NCBI GenBank assembly: GCA_035493235.1
Contig: DATJIP010000106.1
Location: 26,610-90,609, forward strand
DNA: 64,000 nucleotides
Source of the DNA: Steroidobacteraceae bacterium
GTDB lineage: Bacteria; Pseudomonadota; Gammaproteobacteria; Steroidobacterales; Steroidobacteraceae
Reading direction: 5' to 3'
Position numbers and translations under genes: made by a program. Numbering within the stretch: the first letter of the stretch is position 1; each line of letters opens with the position of its first letter. This document shows positions 2,306 to 26,208 of this stretch, piece by piece. The notes beneath the pieces were generated by a model. That model ran no database searches, had not been told where the DNA came from, and saw nothing but the letters and a program-made list of their open reading frames with translations.

Positions 2306-2746
2306 GACGGTTCCCCTTGTTGAAGTAACTTGGCTTGCGAAACGAATCTCCCTGCGCGCGCAAACCTGCGCCTATGTACGATGATGTCAATAAGCAGCGA
2401 TATCATTCGCGCGCGTTTGCGTGCACATATCTATGGATGTGCGTAGTTAGGACTATTCGGCAAAGCACGAGCGAAGCTGCGGTCGCGGTGACAGTCTTGG
2501 CTTATTGGAAAATATCTTTCGCTCGTTGGCGCCAATTGCTTCGATCGATGGCGAAGGATGCAAGCCAACAACACTTGATCTGACACAGACACTGCGTTGC
2601 GCGTACGTGTGCACGCGGCGGCGAAATTACTGCAGCAATCGCAAGGCTTTGCAGGCCGCAGTGAGTCGTGCGGGCGAGCTCGCGCGGTACACCCTTAAGC
2701 CCGCGCGCGCAGGGTTGTGGCAGGTTGCTGGCGAAGGACAACGCCG

Positions 2747-2929
2747 ATGCAGGCAGCGGATCCCGAGACATTCCAACTGCACGTCGAGTTCGTGAATGCC
2801 CATGGCCTGGCGCAAGGTCAGTTCACCACGTTCTCGACGTGCAACCCCATCGAACATGTCGCATCAGACTCAAGCACCGCATCCAGCCCGACGCGGACAG
2901 CCCTGCAAGCCCGGCGCGAGGCTCTGTAG
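2747..2929 (+). CDS. Possible 60-aa hypothetical protein (MQAADPETFQLHVEF...)
   Basis: AAGGA upstream of ATG 2747; no recognisable motif. Confidence 0.25.
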   Translation: MQAADPETFQLHVEFVNAHGLAQGQFTTFSTCNPIEHVASDSSTASSPTRTALQARREAL

Positions 2930-3111
2930 CTATGCGGGGTTGTGGTTGACGGCGGTTCGTAACGACGACTGCTATCGTCGCGTGCCGTGGTGGCGTCCGG
3001 AACCGTGCTCGCTGCGCTCACGGCGAACACGTCCGGACTTGTCGTAGACGTCGTTGAAATCAACGCCCCCGCTTCGCTGCCCGCGTCCTGCAGGCAGCGA
3101 AGCGAGCGAGG

Positions 3112-4182
3112 TCAGCGGCGGGCGCCGGCGCTGACTCGCGCCGCCGTCGCAGGTGCGTGGCTGGCGTTCGAGTACAGCTCTCCTTCCGACTCTTCCTCTT
3201 CCTCGAGTTCGACCTCGACCTCGACCTCCCACTGCGGCTCCGATACTTCTAGTTGGATGCGTGCGAGCGGTACGACGTCGTGCAACGCCGTCAGCTTGAA
3301 CAGCTCCGGTCGGCACAGACGATAGCGACTGACGGCAACGGAGAGCGTCGAAGGATCGCGACGCAGATAGCGCGCGACTTCGCTCAACGTTGCCACGCGC
3401 CGCTCGGTCGCATACCAGGCGATGAGTGCGCGTGCGAGTGTGACCTCACGCTGACGTGAGTTCGAGAGCACGTGCTCGCGATCGACGCCGAGCCGGCACG
3501 TCACGGTCTGGATGATCTGCTCCAGCGTGAGCTTGCTGCGATAGACACGCAGGTGGCGCGGCAGGTTCTCGAGGAACTCCGGACTCGCGACGATGCGTGC
3601 ATCGTGCCTGCTGCCGTGTTCGAACAGGGTGCACTCCTCATGCACCGGCGCGACCGCCATGAACTCGGCGTATTCGCTGTTCTGATCGCACCCGCTCAGC
3701 AGCTTCATTGCCGTGCGCGTGGTCAACCAGGGGATCTCGACCTTGCCGAGATATGCGCCATGGCTCGTAAACGGATACGCAGTGGGATCGCCGCCCAGTC
3801 CCTCGCTGACCGGCAGGTGATGGATGTAGCGGACCAGCTTCAGCAGGTACGCATCGGGATCGATCAGGATCGCCTTGTAGCGCTGCCGGAAGAAGTGGCC
3901 GTACTCCGCTGCGCGCTCATGAATGCTGCGCGCGTAGCGACTGGTGATGCCCTGCATGAAACGTCCGACCGACACGCTGTCGATCTGCAACGCGATGTGA
4001 ATTGCGTCTGGTGTCCAGCAGTACGCATGCAGACGCGCGCCGGTCCGGCGCAGCGCTGTTGCGAGCAGACGTTCGAAGAGCTGGTAGTCCGTGTGCTGGG
4101 AGAAGATGGGGCGAGTCGTACTGCCCCGCTGGACTACGTAGTACGTTCCTCCCGGAACGTGCAGTCGTTGACGACGCGACAT
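3112..4182 (-). CDS. RAYT/Y1 HUH transposase-like protein with C-terminal DnaA domain IV-like HTH; HUH motif degenerate
   Basis: PGGTYYVVQRG...PIF, AYCWTPDAIH (canonical AYCLMPNHxH), RFFxQRYKA-like segment, YPFTSH; C-terminal SRQREVTLARALIAWY...RRDPSTL; GGAGG RBS. Confidence 0.8.
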   Translation of the reverse strand: MSRRQRLHVPGGTYYVVQRGSTTRPIFSQHTDYQLFERLLATALRRTGARLHAYCWTPDAIHIALQIDSVSVGRFMQGITSRYARSIHERAAEYGHFFRQRYKAILIDPDAYLLKLVRYIHHLPVSEGLGGDPTAYPFTSHGAYLGKVEIPWLTTRTAMKLLSGCDQNSEYAEFMAVAPVHEECTLFEHGSRHDARIVASPEFLENLPRHLRVYRSKLTLEQIIQTVTCRLGVDREHVLSNSRQREVTLARALIAWYATERRVATLSEVARYLRRDPSTLSVAVSRYRLCRPELFKLTALHDVVPLARIQLEVSEPQWEVEVEVELEEEEESEGELYSNASHAPATAARVSAGARR

Positions 4183-18671: not shown

Positions 18672-19346
18672 CTATCGCGTCCGGCGCGGTCGCTTCGCAG
18701 CGGGCGGCTCTTCCGAGCGCGTTTTATCGCGGAACTCGCACAGCTCCAGGATCGGGCACTCGGGGCATTTCGGCTTGCGCGCCACGCATGTGTAGCGGCC
18801 GTGCAGGATCAGCCAGTGATGCGCGTCGTGCAGATACTCGGGCGGCACGACCTTCAACAGATGGTCTTCCACTTCGCGCACGTTCTCGCCGGGTGCCAGG
18901 CCGGTGCGATTCGCGACGCGGAAGATGTGCGTGTCCACCGCGATCGTCGGTTGCCCGAACGCGGTATTCAGGATCACGTTCGCCGTTTTGCGGCCGACGC
19001 CGGGAAGCGCTTCGAGCGCTGCGCGCTCTTGCGGGACTTCGCCGCCGTGCTGCGCCAGCAGGAGGCGGCACATCTCGATGACGTTCTTCGCCTTCGAGTT
19101 GTAGAGCCCGATCGTCTTGATGTACTCGGACAGGCCGCCGATGCCGAGCTTGAAGATCGCCTGCGGCGTGTTCGCGTGCTTGAACAGGGTGCGCGTCGCG
19201 AGGTTGACGCTCTTGTCGGTCGCCTGCGCCGAAAGAATCACTGCGACCAGCAGCTCGAACGGTGTGCTGTACTCGAGCTCGGTGGTGGGCTTTGGATTGA
19301 GCGACTTGAGGCGCGCGAAGATGGCGGCGACTTTCTTCTTGTTCAT
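18672..19346 (-). CDS. nth: Endonuclease III
   Basis: LSAQATD, LPGVGRKTANV, VDTHIFRV, C-x6-C-x2-C-x5-C. Confidence 0.96.
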   Translation of the reverse strand: MNKKKVAAIFARLKSLNPKPTTELEYSTPFELLVAVILSAQATDKSVNLATRTLFKHANTPQAIFKLGIGGLSEYIKTIGLYNSKAKNVIEMCRLLLAQHGGEVPQERAALEALPGVGRKTANVILNTAFGQPTIAVDTHIFRVANRTGLAPGENVREVEDHLLKVVPPEYLHDAHHWLILHGRYTCVARKPKCPECPILELCEFRDKTRSEEPPAAKRPRRTR

Positions 19347-19951
19347 GAGCGACGCTGAATGAACCAGTTGCGGGCAGCGAGCAGCAGACCAAAGGCAATG
19401 AAAGCGCCGGGCGGCAGCATCGCGAGCAGGAATCCCATGTCGACGCGGAATACGCTCAACTCCGACCAGCCGGCCCAGGCTCCGAGGAGACTATGGGCAT
19501 CGTGCAGGAACGAGCCGCGGCCGACGAGCTCGCGCGCAATACCGAGCGGCAGCAGCGTAATCGCGATGCCGATCGCAATCCGCAGGCTTTCGGTGACTGC
19601 GGCGGCGAAGCTTTCATGTCGCGCGTACACGTGCTGAACGACGATCAAGTTCGACACGATCAGCGGCACGAACAGCGTGAGCGACGTGCGCAGCTCGCTG
19701 AACCACGCGCTCGACAGCAGCTCGACGCACGCGACGAGGGCTGCGATCGTCAGCATGCTCGCTGCGAGCGCAGTCTCGTTCTCCAGGCGCGATCGCATGA
19801 CCGCAAGCAAGGCGGTTGCGAGTGGCACGACGATCAGCACGATGACGCCGATACCGAGGGCATTGGCGACGGTGTCGCTCATCGCAAGCAGCGGACAGAC
19901 AGCGATGAGCTGCACCGTGCTGCCGAATTTCCGCGAGCTAGGAGTGCTCAT
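19343..19951 (-). CDS. rnfE: Rnf/Rsx electron transport complex subunit E (divergent)
   Basis: QLIAVCPLLAMS, RELVGRG, FLLAMLPPGAF; position between rnfG and nth. Confidence 0.85.
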   Translation of the reverse strand: MSTPSSRKFGSTVQLIAVCPLLAMSDTVANALGIGVIVLIVVPLATALLAVMRSRLENETALAASMLTIAALVACVELLSSAWFSELRTSLTLFVPLIVSNLIVVQHVYARHESFAAAVTESLRIAIGIAITLLPLGIARELVGRGSFLHDAHSLLGAWAGWSELSVFRVDMGFLLAMLPPGAFIAFGLLLAARNWFIQRRS

Positions 19952-20564
19952 TGGCGGGTTGATCGAAGATGCGTCGACTGTTGCGCTGATAGTACTCGAG
20001 CGCGTTGCGCACGGCCTTGACGATCGCGCGCGGCGTGATCGTCGCGCCGGTGAAGGCGTCGAAGTCGCCGCCGTCGCGACGCACGGTCCAGCGTTGCGAG
20101 GGCGGATCGGTCAGCGAGCGGCCGCGAAAGTGATCGAGCCAATGGATGTCGCGCGACTCGAACGCATCGCCGAGGCCGGGAGTTTCCTGGTGACGGATCA
20201 CTTGCACGCCGATCAGCCGGCCGTCCGGACCGACCGCCACGAGCAGCTCGATCGGTCCGCGATAACCATCCGGCGCAATCGGTCGCAGCACTGCCGCTAC
20301 GGGCGCGCCGCCACGCCTTGCTCGATAGATCATGACCGGCTGGGACGAGCCGAGCAGATCGGGTGCAGTGACGGCAATCGAATCGGTGAGCAAATCGTTG
20401 TCGTGCGTCGCCGGCGGCACCAGTGCATCGAGACGCTGCCTGATCCACGCCTGCTCGTTGCTGGCGATGCGTTCGCGCGTGAAGCTCGCAACCAGCGCCA
20501 GCACCGCAGTGAGTACGGCCGCGATGATCGCCAGGGTCAGCGCGGGTTTAACGGGCATGCCCAT
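19938..20564 (-). CDS. rnfG: Rnf/Rsx subunit G
   Basis: HQETPGLGD, FDAFTGATITP FMN-binding motif. Confidence 0.92.
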   Translation of the reverse strand: MGMPVKPALTLAIIAAVLTAVLALVASFTRERIASNEQAWIRQRLDALVPPATHDNDLLTDSIAVTAPDLLGSSQPVMIYRARRGGAPVAAVLRPIAPDGYRGPIELLVAVGPDGRLIGVQVIRHQETPGLGDAFESRDIHWLDHFRGRSLTDPPSQRWTVRRDGGDFDAFTGATITPRAIVKAVRNALEYYQRNSRRIFDQPANEHS

Positions 20565-21597
20565 AGATGCGCGGAATCGTGTAGCGATCGATGAGCGGCA
20601 CGGTCAGATTCATGATCAGCACTGCGAACGCGACGCCGTCGGGATAGCCGCCCCAGGTGCGGATGACGTATGTCAGCACACCGATGCCGGCGCCGTAGAT
20701 GAGCTTGCCGCGATCGCTCGTTGCTGCCGAGACCGGATCGGTCGCGATGAAGAACGCTCCGAGCATGCTCGCGCCAGAGGTCAGGTGGAACAGCGGTCCA
20801 GCGTAGCCGCCGGGGTCCGCCGCCGACATGATCGAAGCGCAGACGAACAACGCGGTGAGCATCGCGACCGGGATGTGCCAGCGAATGATCCGCAGCGCCA
20901 GCAGCCAGCCGCCGCCCGCGAGCGTCGCGAGATTGATCCATTCCCAGCCCTTGCCGCCGAAGGTGCTGAACATCGCGTTGGCATGCGCTTCGCCCATCGT
21001 CATGCCGAGTGCAAGATCGGTGCGCAGCGCGTCGAGCGGCGTCGGCGACGTGATGGCGTCCCAGGTGAAGCGCGCGGGCGGCATGCCGGTGAAAATCGTC
21101 GTCAGCGTGTCGACGAACGACAACGATGCGGGTTCGAGCCCCGCGACGTTCGGCGGCAGCCACTGCAGCATCCGTGCGGGGAACGAAACGAGCAGCACGG
21201 CGTAGCCGACCATGGCTGGATTGAATGGATTCGCGCCGAGCCCGCCGAACAGATGCTTGGCTAGCAAGATCGCGAACGCGACGCCGCTGACTACGAGCCA
21301 CCATGGCGCGAGTGGCGGCAGGCACAGCGCGAGTAGTACGGCGGTGATGATGGCGCTGCCATCGAGCAGGAAGGGCGGCAGCGGCTTGCCCCGCAGGCGC
21401 AGAGCGGCAGCTTCGGCAGCGAGCGCGGTCACGACGCCGAGCACGATCTGGATCAGCAACCCCGGGCCGAAGAACACGACGTGCAACGCGACCGTCGGGA
21501 TCAACGCGTACAACACTTGCCGCATCACGCGCGCGACGCTGCTCGGAGCGACCACGTGGGGAGCCGGTGCTGTGGCGAATGGCATCGGTGCAGTCAC
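20548..21597 (-). CDS. rnfD: Rnf/Rsx subunit D
   Basis: AKHLFGGLGANPFNPAM, TSPTPLD, FFIATDPVS, GGYPDGVAFA. Confidence 0.93.
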   Translation of the reverse strand: MTAPMPFATAPAPHVVAPSSVARVMRQVLYALIPTVALHVVFFGPGLLIQIVLGVVTALAAEAAALRLRGKPLPPFLLDGSAIITAVLLALCLPPLAPWWLVVSGVAFAILLAKHLFGGLGANPFNPAMVGYAVLLVSFPARMLQWLPPNVAGLEPASLSFVDTLTTIFTGMPPARFTWDAITSPTPLDALRTDLALGMTMGEAHANAMFSTFGGKGWEWINLATLAGGGWLLALRIIRWHIPVAMLTALFVCASIMSAADPGGYAGPLFHLTSGASMLGAFFIATDPVSAATSDRGKLIYGAGIGVLTYVIRTWGGYPDGVAFAVLIMNLTVPLIDRYTIPRIYGHAR

Positions 21598-23048
21598 GAC
21601 GATTTCTTCGCAAGCTCCTGACGTTTTTTCGCGAGCGCGGCCAGCCGCTCGCTCTCGATATGTTCGAGCCGGGCAGTCCTCGCGTCGAAACGCGTGCGTG
21701 CCGCGGCAGCGCTGCCGCGCGCGGCGAGACGCTCGGTCAGCGCGGGCTTCATATCACGAAAGCGCTCGGCCAGCGGAATCTGGCTCGGGCACACGTAGTC
21801 GCAGCAGCCGCATTCGATGCAATCCATCAGTCCGTACGCTTCGAGTGCATCTAGGTCGCGGCCCATTGCGTACCAGTGCAGCTGCTGCGGCAGCAGCGTT
21901 GCCGGGCAAACCTCGGCGCAGTTGCCGCAGCGGATGCAGGGCATCTCGGCTGCGCGCGGCTGCAGATCCAGCGCCGAGGCGGCGATGATGCAGTTGGTCG
22001 CCTTGATGACCGGCATGCCATCGTGCGGCAGCGATTGACCCATCATCGACCCGCCCATGATGAGTCGTGACATGCGGCTGGTGTAGCCACCGCAGTCGTA
22101 GATCAAAGCGGCCAACGGCGTGCCGAGGCGCACGTCGAGATTGCGTTGTTCGAGCACACCGTCGCCGGTGACCGTGACGATGCGATTGGTCAGCGGCTGC
22201 GCATCGCGAATCCAGTACGCGACGGCCGCTGCAGTCCCGACGTTCAGGCACACAGTGTTCACGTCGGCAGGCAGCCCGCCGGCCGGCACTTCGACGTCGA
22301 AGACTGCAGTGATGAGCTGCCTCTCGCCGCCGGCTGGGTAGTCGCTCCCCACCTGTCGCAATTGAATTCGCTGGTCGTGCGCTTCGGCAATTGCGGCTTC
22401 GAGTGCGGCGGCTGCCTGCGGGGTGTCGTCTTCAATTGCGATCACGCACGTTTGTGCTGTGAGCGCATGAAGCAGCACGCGCGCGCCGAACACGACATCG
22501 CGAGCCCGTTCGCGCATCAGCATGTCGTCGCAGCTGATGTACGGCTCGCACTCGGCACCATTGAGCAGCAGCCGCAACTCCTGGCCGCGGACAGCGCTGC
22601 TCAGTTTCGCGGCGGTCGGAAAGACTGCGCCGCCGAGTCCGACGATTCCGCCGCGACCAATGATTTCGCGCAGTTGTTCGGGCGACAGCTGATCGAATGG
22701 CGCCGGCGCAGGCTGCGCGTAGCGCTCATCGCGGCCGTCGTTCGCGACGACGATGCTCAACGTGGGCGCTCCGAGTCGATGCGGCGCCGGTCGCGGCTCG
22801 ATCGCGGCAACGGTCCCGGAGGCCGGTGAATGCAGCCACGCACTGATTGCACCGCCCGGCTCAGCGATCGGCTGTCCACGCAGCACTCGCTCGCCCGGTT
22901 TGACCAGCGGCACGGCCGGAGCGCCCGCGTGCTGGTCGAGTGGTAGCACCAGCGTCTCGACCGAACTCGCGGCACGCAGCGCCTGCGCGGTCGACCGCTC
23001 TTTATGAGCATCGAGCCGCAGTCCGCCGCGCACACCGGGCTTGGCCAT
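21594..23048 (-). CDS. rnfC: Rnf/Rsx subunit C
   Basis: GIVGLGGAVFPT, NGAECEPY, CIRCGNCAEVCP, CIECGCCDYVCP. Start MAKPG at 23048. Confidence 0.93.
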   Translation of the reverse strand: MAKPGVRGGLRLDAHKERSTAQALRAASSVETLVLPLDQHAGAPAVPLVKPGERVLRGQPIAEPGGAISAWLHSPASGTVAAIEPRPAPHRLGAPTLSIVVANDGRDERYAQPAPAPFDQLSPEQLREIIGRGGIVGLGGAVFPTAAKLSSAVRGQELRLLLNGAECEPYISCDDMLMRERARDVVFGARVLLHALTAQTCVIAIEDDTPQAAAALEAAIAEAHDQRIQLRQVGSDYPAGGERQLITAVFDVEVPAGGLPADVNTVCLNVGTAAAVAYWIRDAQPLTNRIVTVTGDGVLEQRNLDVRLGTPLAALIYDCGGYTSRMSRLIMGGSMMGQSLPHDGMPVIKATNCIIAASALDLQPRAAEMPCIRCGNCAEVCPATLLPQQLHWYAMGRDLDALEAYGLMDCIECGCCDYVCPSQIPLAERFRDMKPALTERLAARGSAAAARTRFDARTARLEHIESERLAALAKKRQELAKKSS

Positions 23049-23050
23049 GG

Positions 23051-23551
23051 TCAGGCCGACGCGGGTCGCATGACGATGCAATCGACGGGGCAGGGCGGGA
23101 TGCACAGCTCGCAGCCCGTGCACTGGTCCGCGATGACCGTGTGCATGAACTTCGAGGCGCCGACGATTGCATCGACCGGACACGCTTGAATGCATTTGAC
23201 GCAGCCGATGCACGCAGACTCGTCGATCCATGCGACCAGCGGCTGCGCCCGCACGGCGCCGAAGCGCGGATCGACGGGGCGCGGCTCGCGGCCCAGCAGA
23301 TTCGCCAGCGCCGCGGCCGTGGCGTTGCCTCCCGGTGGGCACTGATCGATGTCGGCCTCGCCGCTCGCGAGCGCGCTCGCATAGGGACGGCATCCCGAGA
23401 ACGTGCAGCGGCCGCATTGCGTTTGCGGCAGCAGCGCGTCGATCTCGTCGATCAGCCGCTTCTGGTCCTCGTTCGAACGACGTGTCGCGAGCGCAGCGGC
23501 GGCGCCGGCCGCGGCGGCCAATCCAACCATGGTCAGCAGCGCGGGCAACAT
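23051..23551 (-). CDS. rnfB: Rnf/Rsx subunit B
   Basis: LPQTQCGRC...CPPGG, CIGCVKCIQACPVD, CTGCELCIPPCPVDC. Confidence 0.92.
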   Translation of the reverse strand: MLPALLTMVGLAAAAGAAAALATRRSNEDQKRLIDEIDALLPQTQCGRCTFSGCRPYASALASGEADIDQCPPGGNATAAALANLLGREPRPVDPRFGAVRAQPLVAWIDESACIGCVKCIQACPVDAIVGASKFMHTVIADQCTGCELCIPPCPVDCIVMRPASA

Positions 23552-23553
23552 GA

Positions 23554-24132
23554 CTATTCCTGAATCAGTCCGCTGAAGCCCATGAACGCGAGCGCCATGA
23601 TCCCGGCTGTGATCAGCGCGAGTGGCGCCTCGCGAAAGATCATCGGCACGTCGGCGTGCTGCAGTCTTTCGTACAGCGCAGCGAACGCCAGCAGCAGCAC
23701 GGCGAGTGCCACCGCTGCCCCGATCGCCAGCAACACGGCGACGCCAAAATTCGCGGATCGCAGATCTGTAATGAGCGCGATGCCGAGCAATGCAGTGTTC
23801 GTGATCATCACCAGTGCAAAGCCGGGCTGTTGCGTCAGGATTCCCCGACGACGGCGCAACGCAACCTCCAGCAGCGGCACGACGATCAACACCACCGCGA
23901 CGAGCATCGGTGTGCGCAGGTACTCCAGGTGCCACGGCCCGAGCACCAACCGCGCGACGAGCCAGCCGAGCAACGCGACGGCAGGAACAGCGACGAGACC
24001 AAGGAGTGCGACGACACGCGCGCCGCCGAAGATGTCGGTCGGCGTGACGAACGGACGCCACTGCGGCATGTGCGCGAGTACCACTGTCGTGACCAGCACG
24101 CTGCTCAACAGAACCATGAGCAGAGCAACCAT
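23554..24132 (-). CDS. rnfA: Rnf/Rsx subunit A (divergent, no cysteines)
   Basis: LEYLRT, ERL..ADVP..FR, LITAGIMALAFMGFSGL C-terminus; first gene of the operon. Confidence 0.88.
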   Translation of the reverse strand: MVALLMVLLSSVLVTTVVLAHMPQWRPFVTPTDIFGGARVVALLGLVAVPAVALLGWLVARLVLGPWHLEYLRTPMLVAVVLIVVPLLEVALRRRRGILTQQPGFALVMITNTALLGIALITDLRSANFGVAVLLAIGAAVALAVLLLAFAALYERLQHADVPMIFREAPLALITAGIMALAFMGFSGLIQE

Positions 24133-24138
24133 GACGCG

Positions 24139-26208
24139 CTACTTCACTTTCATCCCCGGCGTCGCGCCCGCATCCGGCGCCAGCAGGAAGATGTCTTTGC
24201 CGCCGGGCCCAGCCGCGAGCACCATGCCTTCGGACACGCCGAAGCGCATCTTGCGTGGCTTGAGATTCGCCAGCACCAGCGTCATGCGTCCTGGCAGCTG
24301 CTCCGGCGCATAAGCGGAGCGAATGCCGGCAAAGACCGTGCGCTGACCTTCGCCGAGATCGAGCGTCAGCTTCAGCAGCTTGTCGGCGCCCTCGACGATT
24401 TCGGCAGCGACGATCTTCGCGATGCGCAGGTCGAGCTTCGCGAAGTCATCCACCGTCACCTCGCCTGCGGCGGGTGCGGCAGCGGGTGCAGCGGCTGGCG
24501 CCGGTGCTTTCGTCTCGGGCTTCGTCGCGGCCTCGTCGAGACCGAGCAGGGCATCGAGCTGCTTTGCTTCCGCACGCGTCATCAGATGCTCGTACGAACC
24601 AATGATGTGATTCTCGAGCAGCTGTTGCGAATCCTGCCATTGCAGCGGCGGAATACGCAGGAACTGTTCGACGGCCTCGGCCACCTTCGGCAGGACCGGC
24701 TTCAGATAGATCGTGAGCAGGCGGAACACGTTCAGGCTGACCGTGCACACCTCTGCGAGTCGCGCATCGTTCTGCGCATCTTTCGCCAGCTCCCAAGGAG
24801 CGTTCTGTGCAATGTAGGCGTTCGCTGCGTCCGCTGCTTCCATGATCTCGCGCAGCGCTTTGCCGAACTCACGTTGCTCGTAGTACGTCGCGATCGTCTG
24901 TGACGCCGCGCGCACGTCGTCGAGCATGCGATTGTTCGCAACGCTGCCGAGCCGCCCGCCGAAACGCTTGGCGACGAAACCGGCCGTGCGGCTCGCGATG
25001 TTCACATACTTGCCGACCAGGTCGCTGTTGACGCGCGCCACGAAGTCGTCGGGGTTGAACTCCATGTCCTCGACGTTCGCATTGAGCTTCGCCGCAATGT
25101 AATAGCGCAGCCACTCCGGGTTCATGCCGAGCTCGAGGTAGCGCAGCGGGCTCAGGCCCGTGCCGCGCGACTTCGACATCTTGGCGCCGCCGAGCATGAT
25201 GAAGCCGTGCACGTAGACGTGATCCGGCACTTTGCGGCCGGCGAACTTCAGCATCGCCGGCCAGAACAGCGTATGGAAGTAGATGATGTCCTTGCCGATG
25301 ATGTGGATCTGCTCCGTGTCCGGCGCGGCGAGGAATTCATCGAAGCTGCGCGGCTCGCCGTTGGCGCGCGCCTTGCCGCTGTCGAAGTAATTCTTGAGCG
25401 AGGCGAGATAGCCGACCGGCGCGTCCAGCCACACGTAGAAGAACTTTCCCGGCGCGTCCGGGATCGGAATGCCGAAGTACGGCGCGTCGCGCGAGATGTC
25501 CCAGTCGCCGAGCTGCTGGTCGCCGCTGCCGCTGATCCATTCGCGCGCCTTGTTCGCGACCGACGGCTGCAGCCGTCCCGGCGCGTCGAGCCAGCTCTTC
25601 ATGAAGTCGATGCACTTCGGGTCGGAGAGCCGGAAGAAGTAGTGGTCGGAGCTCTTGCGCACCGGCGCCACGCCCGACAGCGTCGAGTAAGGATCGATCA
25701 GGTCGGTCGGCGCGTAGACGGAACTGCAGTTCTCGCACGCGTCGCCGTACTGGTCCTTGGTGTGGCACACCGGGCACTCGCCCTTGATGTAGCGATCCGG
25801 CAGGAACATCTGCTTCACCGGATCGAAGAACTGCTCGACCGGCTTCACGTAGATCAGGCCCGCCGTCTTGAGCTTGCGGTAGATGTCGGTCGACAGCTCG
25901 AAGTTTTCGGGCGAGTGCGTCGTGTACCAGTGATCGAAACTGAGCAGAAAGCCGTCGAGATACTGACGCCGCCCGGCGCCGATCCGGCGGATCAGCTCCT
26001 CCGGCGTGATCCCCTCGGCTTCGGCCTTCAGCATGATCGGCGCACCGTGGGTGTCGTCGGCGCCGACGAAGTGCACCGGCCGGCCCTGCATGCGCTGGAA
26101 GCGCACCCAGATGTCGGCCTGGATGTACTCCATGATGTGGCCGATGTGAAACGGTCCGTTCGAGAACGGCAGCGCAGTCGTGATGAAGAGGGGACGCAGA
26201 GAACTCAT
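24139..26208 (-). CDS. metG: Methionine--tRNA ligase
   Basis: HIGH, KMSKS, Zn knuckle, C-terminal OB domain. Start MSSLRPLF at 26208. Confidence 0.96.

Follow-up and report, generated by a model that had tools for sequence, protein, structure and literature searches.

The stretch of DNA analysed here, which we call the window, comprises 64,000 nucleotides (nt) from a Steroidobacteraceae bacterium (assembly GCA_035493235.1, contig DATJIP010000106.1, positions 26,610 to 90,609), and our subject is an operon on its minus strand that carries genes for all six subunits of an Rnf (Rsx) complex. Two of these subunits, the membrane proteins RnfA and RnfE, lack three of the four cysteines that hold the membrane [2Fe-2S] cluster known as AE1, and we argue below that the operon probably encodes a stable complex that works without this cluster. 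The operon and its two flanking genes are arranged as follows.

24139-26208, minus strand: metG, the conserved upstream neighbour, with its stop codon 6 nt before the rnfA start
23554-24132, minus strand: rnfA, 192 amino acids (aa), a Cys-free RnfA homologue with the fold retained in the predicted model
23051-23551, minus strand: rnfB, 166 aa, with an N-terminal transmembrane helix, a CX2CX4C...C cluster domain and a 2x[4Fe-4S] domain
21594-23048, minus strand: rnfC, 484 aa, a module for NADH (reduced nicotinamide adenine dinucleotide) and flavin mononucleotide (FMN) plus 2x[4Fe-4S], with Complex1_51K, RnfC_N and SLBB domains
20548-21597, minus strand: rnfD, 349 aa, the most conserved subunit in the clade
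19938-20564, minus strand: rnfG, 208 aa, the membrane-anchored periplasmic FMN-binding subunit
19343-19951, minus strand: rnfE, 202 aa, with one of its two ligand cysteines kept
18672-19346, minus strand: nth (endonuclease III; TIGR01083, 281 bits), the last gene of the unit, overlapping rnfE by 4 nt

The six genes stand in rnfABCDGE order and are translationally coupled, with gaps of 2-6 nt or overlaps of 4-17 nt throughout the metG-rnfABCDGE-nth unit. This is the gammaproteobacterial rsxABCDGE-nth layout, and the metG-rnf-nth synteny is the same in all relatives compared. Scores against NCBIfam profiles split the subunits into two groups: RnfB (208 bits against a cut-off of 203 for the Rsx equivalog; 220 bits for TIGR01944), RnfC (565 against 345, RsxC equivalog), RnfD (432 against 415, RsxD equivalog) and RnfG (217 against 178, RsxG equivalog) lie at or above the Rsx cut-offs, whereas RnfA (112 against 240 for the RsxA equivalog; 101 against 229 for TIGR01943) and RnfE (159 against 184 for the RsxE subfamily; 133 against 213 for TIGR01948) fall clearly below theirs. 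With 48 bits, RnfA passes the gathering score of Pfam PF02508.

The published ligands of AE1 are Cys25 and Cys113 of RnfA together with Cys26 and Cys109, or Cys25 and Cys108, of RnfE, and the literature calls all four invariant and strictly conserved throughout the Rnf and Nqr families (PMC9588780, PMC11889175, PMC12174285). Here, RnfA has no cysteine at all in its 192 residues. HMMER alignment of RnfA to the solved chains 9eri_A, 8ahx_A and 7zc6_A, and alignment of RnfE to 8ahx_E, 7zc6_E and 9eri_E, assigns the ligand sites to these residues.

24049-24060, minus strand: RnfA W25-R26-P27-F28, with Arg26 at the first ligand position (CPF to RPF)
23788-23802, minus strand: RnfA T111-N112-T113-A-L, with Thr113 at the second ligand position (TNCAVLG to TNTALLG)
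19889-19903, minus strand: RnfE A-V-C19-P-L, with the surviving ligand Cys at the first site
19643-19657, minus strand: RnfE V-S-N-L102-I, with Leu102 at the second ligand position (TNC to SNL)

The four sites are thus R26, T113, C19 and L102, with one cysteine of four kept. An initial annotation, made from the letters of the DNA, had already described a Cys-free RnfA whose LGLCP and TNCAV sites are replaced and an RnfE that keeps AVCP and reads SNLIV at its second site; the alignments place exactly these residues under the ligands of the solved chains.

Throughout one genus-level clade of Steroidobacteraceae this loss of ligands is fixed. Eleven species-level metagenome-assembled genomes (MAGs) of the family carry the complete operon with these site states, six further genomes of the genus share the loss, and in two of the 11 (the sister species L034 and L038) Cys19 of RnfE has also been replaced, by Val, so that none of the four ligands is left. 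An RnfA identical to that of the window is encoded on 102 contigs. Its 120 closest metagenomic homologues (81-100% identity) all have Arg at the first site and Thr or Ala at the second, reading H[ML]PQW-R-PF and TN-[TA]-ALLG, while Cys at site 1 and Leu at site 2 are each present in 119 of the 120 RnfE homologues. Across the clade the ligand sites hold Arg, Thr/Ala/Ser/Gly, Cys/Val and Leu/Ile, respectively, and His, Cys, Met, Asp and Glu never appear as replacements. Alternative metal ligands, namely RnfA His21 and Met22 and the residual RnfE Cys19, were considered and dropped because they are not conserved across the genus. A search of 1.84 billion representative proteins with RnfA returned, among its best 150 matches, 106 near-full-length ones, of which 28 have both ligand cysteines; the other 78, from related 50%-identity clusters in a list biased towards divergent forms, lack one or both, which shows, as far as sequence can tell, that RnfA-like proteins without the ligands are diverse. 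We found no description of RnfA or RnfE proteins without ligand cysteines in a full-text literature search.

In this clade the proteins that have lost their ligands show no decay, and purifying selection still acts on both RnfA and RnfE. Pairwise ratios of nonsynonymous to synonymous substitution rates (dN/dS; Nei-Gojobori method, NG86) among the 11 species, with the long-read MAG L040 excluded, are 0.14 for RnfA and 0.23 for RnfE, next to 0.12 for RnfB, 0.14 for RnfC, 0.09 for RnfD, 0.16 for RnfG and, for the flanking genes, 0.19 for MetG and 0.17 for Nth, values to be read with the caveat that dS between species is 0.5-0.8 and that NG86 is approximate in a genome of 65% guanine plus cytosine (G+C). 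For the canonical genus g28 the same ratios were unstable (saturation, one undefined value and one implausible ratio) and were set aside in favour of identity ranks. Of the 28 clade members that we read, 27 have six unbroken open reading frames. In the remaining one, L040 (CAWHNL010000009.1), rnfA, rnfC and rnfE are frameshifted and the neighbouring genes are 80-96% identical to those of the window; these frame breaks are probably sequencing indel errors.

What has changed is the distribution of constraint among the subunits. Among canonical loci mean identities are 73% for MetG, 78% for RnfA, 67% for RnfE, 68% for RnfD, 63% for RnfB, 55% for RnfC and 60% for RnfG; within the genus, at a similar MetG distance, they are 75% for MetG, 48% for RnfA, 44% for RnfE, 74% for RnfD, 66% for RnfB, 63% for RnfC and 57% for RnfG. 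RnfA is thus the most conserved subunit among canonical relatives, while in the genus RnfA and RnfE are the least conserved and RnfD the most. The proportion of invariant positions within the genus follows the same pattern (RnfD 54%, RnfB 46%, RnfC 35%, RnfG 33%, RnfA 23%, RnfE 19%), and RnfD identity within the clade is 91-95%. Judged by these comparisons, constraint has moved from RnfA and RnfE to RnfD. The fold of RnfA is retained in its AlphaFold2 model, which has a mean predicted local distance difference test score (pLDDT) of 82 and a predicted template modelling score (pTM) of 0.76, with the lowest confidence in the two former ligand half-helix regions; Foldseek aligns the model to RnfA and NqrE structures with TM-scores of 0.72-0.74, including 0.74 to both 9eri_A and 8ahx_A. 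Conservation within RnfA is uneven: a comparison of the canonical consensus with the cluster-less one gives 67% identity in the last quarter of the protein and about 30% in the rest. The C-terminal helix of RnfA is reported to contact RnfD and the RnfB cluster domain (PMC9588780), and this pattern fits a scaffold role in which the proteins would owe their retention to their interfaces instead of a cofactor.

The ligands are not the only functional residues to have changed. In Acetobacterium woodii, RnfA K32, R154 and E158 contact or sense the B8 cluster domain of RnfB, and RnfE R67 and E115 are two of the three members of an ion-pair network (PMC11889175). The corresponding positions of the window, together with one new clade-specific residue, are listed here.

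23659-23673, minus strand: RnfA Y154-E-R-L-Q158, with Y154 and Q158 in place of A. woodii R154 and E158
24034-24036, minus strand: RnfA D33, in place of A. woodii K32
19763-19777, minus strand: RnfE E-T-A61-L-A, with Ala61 in place of the ion-pair Arg (A. woodii R67)
19874-19876, minus strand: RnfE D26, a clade-specific Asp seven residues after site 1, where canonical relatives have Thr

The position of A. woodii RnfE E115 holds Tyr, Gln or a gap in the clade, and that of the third ion-pair member, RnfA E88, is still acidic. Four-Cys relatives in the family keep the canonical residues at the docking positions (R, E/D and R/K for R154, E158 and K32) and in the ion-pair network, apart from one with Gly at the K32 position. 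The new residues are themselves conserved. Across 17 species of the genus-level clade RnfA WRPF does not vary, and no other block within the first 35 residues is invariant there; at position 26 of RnfE, every clade member and each of the 120 metagenomic homologues has Asp. The TN motif around N112 of RnfA is conserved in the genus as well. RnfA D33 lies at the position pseudo-symmetric to RnfE D26. We think that W25 and R26 of RnfA probably fill the former cluster cavity and ion path, and Arg26 could possibly be paired with RnfE Asp26 or RnfA D33, which would seal a path otherwise accessible to water and ions.

The remaining cofactor sites of the complex have fared differently. RnfB keeps all 13 of its cysteines, in columns that are conserved in all loci; RnfC has both CxxCxxCxxxCP motifs with conserved iron-sulfur (Fe-S) cysteines; and RnfG carries the canonical flavinylation motif D-A-F-T-G-A-T at 20040-20060, again conserved in all loci. 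The initial annotation had called all of these intact, rightly so, and had extended this to the flavinylation site of RnfD, for which the claim holds for the threonine and not for its surroundings.

21040-21060, minus strand: RnfD flavinylation motif D-A-I-T-S-P-T, with the Thr kept and Ser-Pro where the consensus has Gly-Ala

The consensus recognised by ApbE is D-x-x-[ST]-G-A-[ST] (PMC12052999). Throughout the genus-level clade RnfD has the T-S-P-T form without exception, and four-Cys relatives have T-G-A-T. RnfD N126 and D287 align, in an alignment read by hand, with the riboflavin ligands N123 and D249 of A. woodii. ApbE itself is represented by five paralogues in the source genome and by one to five copies in 18 of 20 genomes tested, irrespective of the Rnf state, which makes its presence uninformative as a discriminator of that state. 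The five paralogues suggest that the genome encodes numerous flavinylated proteins of the periplasm, each a conceivable partner of RnfG.

To place the operon in its family we used two samples, a locus survey of 61 family genomes and a survey of RnfA and RseC in 251. In the former, rnfD was found in 14 genomes, detectable rnfA in 13 and rnfB in 51. The locus between metG and nth occurs in five states: canonical four-Cys rnfABCDGE (genera g14, g28, g31 and g40); cluster-less rnfABCDGE (g1, which includes the window, g9 and g33); cluster-less rnfACDGE without rnfB (g23 and g25); cluster-less rnfABDGE without rnfC (genome G175); and, in most genera, only a short anchorless rnfB. In the larger sample, RnfA is canonical (at least 73% identity to a four-Cys reference) in 17 genomes and divergent in 33 (13 in g1, 10 in g23, four in g9, three in g33, two in g28 and one in g25), while four (g36) have only matches that their pattern marks as NqrE-like, and 197 (about 78%) have no detectable RnfA. 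Every divergent RnfA/RnfE pair that we read had lost at least two of the four ligands. In a tree of MetG, Nth, RnfC, RnfD and RnfG, the g1, g9, g25 and g33 loci group together with support 100, and a separate clade holds the canonical loci, with g23 as its sister; in a tree of wider taxa, the degenerate loci of G157 and G175 are nested inside the canonical clade (Shimodaira-Hasegawa-like approximate likelihood ratio test, SH-aLRT, 99 and 96). From this nesting and the five-protein tree it follows that the cluster was lost at least three times, probably four. The cluster-less state has lasted while at least five genera diversified.

Several loci show how separable the modules of the complex are. 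In those of g23 (L024, L025, L059) and g25 (L028 and L049, the latter two from G060), rnfA is directly followed by rnfC, and rnfC, rnfD, rnfG and a degenerate rnfE are kept; these genomes have no rnfB anywhere, and their RnfD has Ser for Thr at the flavinylation site (SGAS or STAS). In G175 (L054, G175:C94:70000-81500) the order is metG-rnfA-rnfB-rnfD-rnfG-rnfE-nth, with rnfB ending at 3560 and rnfD starting at 3707 of the locus, and RnfA and RnfE, rich in Ala, can hardly be recognised; the genome has neither rnfC nor RseC. The short rnfB of L045-L048 (G006, G047, G027, G004), which stands alone between metG and nth, is 58-69% identical to the window RnfB over residues ~35-167 and corresponds to NCBIfam NF006446/PRK08764, a 139-residue profile. 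This stand-alone RnfB-type ferredoxin beside endonuclease III seems to have a conserved function of its own.

A further correlate of the cysteines is RseC (PF04246), a small membrane Fe-S protein needed for Rsx function in E. coli (PMC11729352) and, according to a second report, for Rnf-dependent autotrophy in Clostridium ljungdahlii (PMC9124969). Among the 251 family genomes RseC is present in 17, exactly those that have the canonical, four-Cys form of RnfA; all 33 genomes with a divergent RnfA lack it, and the source genome has no PF04246 match. G157 (95% complete, 3 contigs) and G175 (98% complete) lack RseC and nest within the canonical clade, so that RseC and the cysteines were lost together at least three times independently. 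The absence of RseC lends independent support to the view that the cluster-dependent function is gone. By analogy with NqrM, which serves Na+-NQR (PMC12174285), it further suggests a link between the role of RseC and AE1; this is a lead that falls short of proof, as few independent events (three or four) underlie the correlation. The best match to the SoxR model in the source genome reaches 65.9 bits against a cut-off of 116.9, leaving no true SoxR, and SoxR is also absent from four canonical-Rnf genomes tested. Without a true SoxR the physiological role of E. coli Rsx does not transfer, and a SoxR-reducing role of the type served by Rsx, RseC and ApbE was rejected for the source genome, which has neither an RseC match nor a SoxR above the cut-off.

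Taken together, these observations make it reasonably probable that the operon encodes a stable, cluster-less and non-pumping derivative of the gammaproteobacterial RsxABCDGE/Rnf complex, in which RnfA and RnfE act as a non-redox scaffold and only the NADH-RnfC-RnfD-RnfG half is redox-active. In the established scheme nothing but AE1 connects the cytoplasmic-side clusters of RnfB with the FMN that RnfG carries in the periplasm, and the distances from B8 to AE1 and from AE1 to the RnfG FMN are already 15-24 Å when AE1 is present (PMC12174285, PMC11889175). Because there is no other bridge, the loss of AE1 would cut off the ferredoxin-side branch, the canonical loop between ferredoxin and NAD+ could not run, and AE1-driven ion translocation through RnfA and RnfE, having no driver, could not run either. 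The two membrane proteins would survive as a scaffold that joins RnfD, RnfG and the RnfB anchor. What would remain is one contiguous redox chain, from NADH through RnfC (FMN, 2x[4Fe-4S]) and RnfD (riboflavin, FMN) to RnfG (periplasmic FMN), and the complex would most likely link the NADH pool to a periplasmic partner with no ion pumping. RnfB would still be anchored to the complex and be kept for a function that it also performs alone in most relatives; that it has such a job of its own is indicated by the many relatives that keep only the short anchorless rnfB between metG and nth. The modules can evidently be separated, since two genera keep cluster-less rnfACDGE without rnfB and most of the family has only metG, the short rnfB and nth. 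The initial annotation had offered a rewired complex that does not pump ions as one possibility, and the joint loss of ligands, RnfB-docking residues, ion-pair network and RseC supports this by inference. Its mention of a quinone link has not found any such backing: nothing indicates one, and RnfD still scores above the RsxD equivalog cut-off.

A bolder proposal, which we put forward tentatively, is that the lineage represents a third stable state of Rnf/Nqr systems, cluster-less, RseC-independent and non-pumping, in which a Trp-Arg(+Asp) plug would seal the ion path and RnfC, RnfD and RnfG would form a wire between NADH and a periplasmic partner, in either direction; its corollary would be that RseC is a dedicated factor for the assembly or insertion of AE1, the counterpart of NqrM. 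Whether or not this holds, the lineage provides a natural experiment on the structural work that places the membrane [2Fe-2S] cluster at the heart of electron transfer and ion pumping. One family offers, at one chromosomal locus, the canonical state, a cluster-less state under selection, forms without rnfB or rnfC, and a bare rnfB. Such a series makes it possible to ask what the RnfC-D-G flavin half does alone in an aerobic soil gammaproteobacterium, and it renders the function of RseC directly testable, as RseC tracks the four-Cys state perfectly. There is also a practical consequence: the annotation "H+/Na+-translocating ferredoxin:NAD+ oxidoreductase" is probably wrong for 33 of the 251 sampled family genomes and probably also in many other metagenomic lineages.

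Several points weigh against a stable, non-pumping NADH wire. Strong selection maintains the membrane anchor and the B8-type cluster domain of RnfB, which would need neither if it had merely been uncoupled. If ApbE does not use the T-S-P-T form of the RnfD motif, the chain from NADH to RnfG would be broken as well. No new gene has been added to the rnf operon, and the periplasmic partner of RnfG is a postulated one. The dN/dS values are approximate and the RseC correlation is built on three or four events, as said above. In addition, the family as a whole is losing rnf genes, to judge from the 197 genomes with no detectable RnfA; G175 has lost rnfC; and the cluster-less operon of g9 looks like it is undergoing pseudogenisation, with an in-frame TAA in rnfA of G049 (L027, G049:C82:70119-70679), where RnfE is undetectable by tblastn, and an in-frame TAG in rnfD of G009 (L026, G009:C1:1528849-1529859). 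The cluster-less state may thus be a long-lived step towards loss.

These last points lead to the alternative that survives best, although we regard it as unlikely: that function was lost with the cluster and the operon is heading for deletion, looking intact because decay is slow. The survey figures fit such a course, with RnfA undetectable in 197 of 251 genomes, RnfD found in only 14 of 61 and most genomes keeping only metG-rnfB-nth at the locus, as do the stops in G049 and G009, the loss of rnfC in G175 and of rnfB in g23 and g25, and the much faster evolution of RnfA and RnfE than in canonical relatives. However, the dN/dS of the six genes in the 11 species (0.09-0.23) is in the same range as that of metG and nth, and the six reading frames are intact in all clade members read but L040. 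Nor would decay be expected to leave RnfA W25, R26 and D33 and RnfE D26 invariant, to make RnfD more conserved here than in canonical lineages, or to span at least five genera. On these grounds, with WRPF invariant and dN/dS near the metG and nth values, the decaying RnfA and RnfE envisaged at the outset find no support in this clade.

It is quite improbable, in our view, that electrons instead take a cytoplasmic short circuit, by direct exchange between RnfC and RnfB (an uncoupled reductase of ferredoxin or another target by NADH), with the membrane subunits as a mere anchor. RnfB and RnfC are both fully intact and under selection, a clostridial structure has a segment of RnfB that interfaces with RnfC (PMC9588780), and, as a review notes, NADH by itself has enough reducing power for targets such as SoxR (PMC12174285). 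This leaves the conserved RnfD and RnfG with their flavin motifs unexplained, though, and it sits badly with the two genera that keep rnfC-D-G without rnfB and with a source genome that has no true SoxR. We also know of no structure in which the clusters of RnfB and RnfC lie within electron-transfer distance, and count this against the idea.

Another route to conservation without a cluster would be a new, non-redox activity of RnfA and RnfE, such as that of a channel or transporter on the alternating-access fold, perhaps gated by the flavin subunits; we give it little credence. The canonical pair has been described as an ion translocator of the rocker-switch type whose vestibules are filled with water (PMC11889175), and the invariant charged residues of the half-helix region (RnfA R26 and D33, RnfE D26) might serve such a purpose. 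Yet a transporter would hardly be the least conserved part of the complex in the genus, with 19-23% invariant positions, its canonical gating and ion-pair residues are partly replaced, the gene context is not transporter-like, and the genes are still translationally coupled within the rnf operon.

Very unlikely, too, is a transmembrane relay that persists through a metal centre or another cofactor held by non-Cys ligands between RnfA and RnfE, with ferredoxin:NAD+ activity and coupling kept. It could draw on the anchor, B8-type cluster domain and full set of cysteines of RnfB, on the RnfE Cys19 kept in most members and on the conserved RnfA N112 and TN motif. But the replacements (Arg, Thr/Ala/Ser/Gly, Leu/Ile) are not usual Fe-S or haem ligands, Cys19 is Val in L034 and L038, RnfA His21 is not conserved across the genus, the RnfB-docking and sensing residues and the ion-pair network have been replaced, and RseC is lost. 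A different cofactor at the same site, also raised in the initial annotation, finds no footing here, as no His, Cys, Met, Asp or Glu takes the place of a ligand. Compensation by a second Rnf or Nqr was rejected as well: the only two PF02508 genes in the genome are rnfA and rnfE, with no second Rnf/Nqr membrane subunit. Finally, a sequencing or assembly artefact or a contaminating contig, conceivable in an assembly of 267 contigs (5.96 Mb, 65% G+C) with an estimated contamination of 2.67%, has a negligible chance, given that the identical RnfA lies on 102 contigs, that hundreds of independent homologues on independent contigs share the substitutions, for which reason assembly error was rejected, that the metG-rnf-nth synteny recurs in relatives and that G+C is uniform across the whole window.

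A cluster-less complex with a surviving NADH-RnfC-RnfD-RnfG chain can be set beside several known systems. It is most like the E. coli-type RsxABCDGE and the Azotobacter vinelandii Rnf1 (8AHX), with which it shares the rnfABCDGE-nth order, B, C, D and G subunits that reach the Rsx cut-offs, the Fe-S motifs of RnfB and RnfC, the FMN motif of RnfG and the Thr of RnfD; the 8ahx chains are its best structural and sequence matches. It differs from these in the three missing AE1 cysteines, in RsxA and RsxE scores below the cut-offs, in the replaced B8-docking and ion-pair residues, in the T-S-P-T of RnfD and in having neither RseC nor a true SoxR. The Na+-pumping Rnf complexes of A. woodii (9ERI) and Clostridium tetanomorphum (7ZC6) share the six-subunit architecture, and the RnfA model aligns to them with TM-scores of 0.73-0.74. 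The A. woodii mechanism, however, depends on AE1, RnfA K32, R154 and E158 and RnfE R67 and E115 (PMC11889175), all of which are replaced here, and RnfB is the short gammaproteobacterial form, unlike in these two complexes.

The closest published concept is that of the 'NQR/RNF-like' partial systems (Meheust et al. 2021, eLife, PMC8238504), one-way systems in which an RnfD/NqrB domain is fused to an NqrF-type NAD-binding domain (PF00175) beside an FMN-binding or ApbE gene. They occur without RnfA, RnfE, RnfB or RnfC, mainly in Actinobacteria and the candidate phyla radiation (CPR), whereas the operon of the window has six genes, with a separate RnfC NADH module and a stand-alone 349-aa RnfD that contains only PF03116. 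A precedent for a subunit outliving its cofactors is NqrA of Na+-NQR, an RnfC homologue that has lost all its cofactor sites and is kept as a structural subunit (PMC4014512, PMC12174285); there the affected protein is a cytoplasmic one and NQR keeps the membrane cluster, while here it is the membrane pair RnfA/RnfE that has lost its cofactor. Lastly, the stand-alone short RnfB occupies the same metG/nth locus in most Steroidobacteraceae and resembles the window RnfB over residues ~35-167, and it differs in having no anchor and no other rnf genes beside it, being the end state of the reduction series, unlike the window.

A few minor observations complete the picture. Scans with Rfam and for promoters and terminators found nothing relevant in the window. 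Canonical-Rnf genomes also carry NqrB-, NqrD- and NqrE-like genes, probably an nqr operon (G014:C6:868400-871300; G040:C8:6400-9400), and g36 has Nqr-like matches only; the source genome has neither Nqr-like genes nor a canonical Rnf. The WRPF variant is also carried by a complete single-contig genome of 3,467,246 bp (G043), possibly that of a cultured Steroidobacter, whose rnfE (L018, G043:C1:938500-948500, at ~2392-3075 of the locus) has a Pro/Ala/Glu-rich insertion of ~80 residues between the fourth and fifth transmembrane segments.

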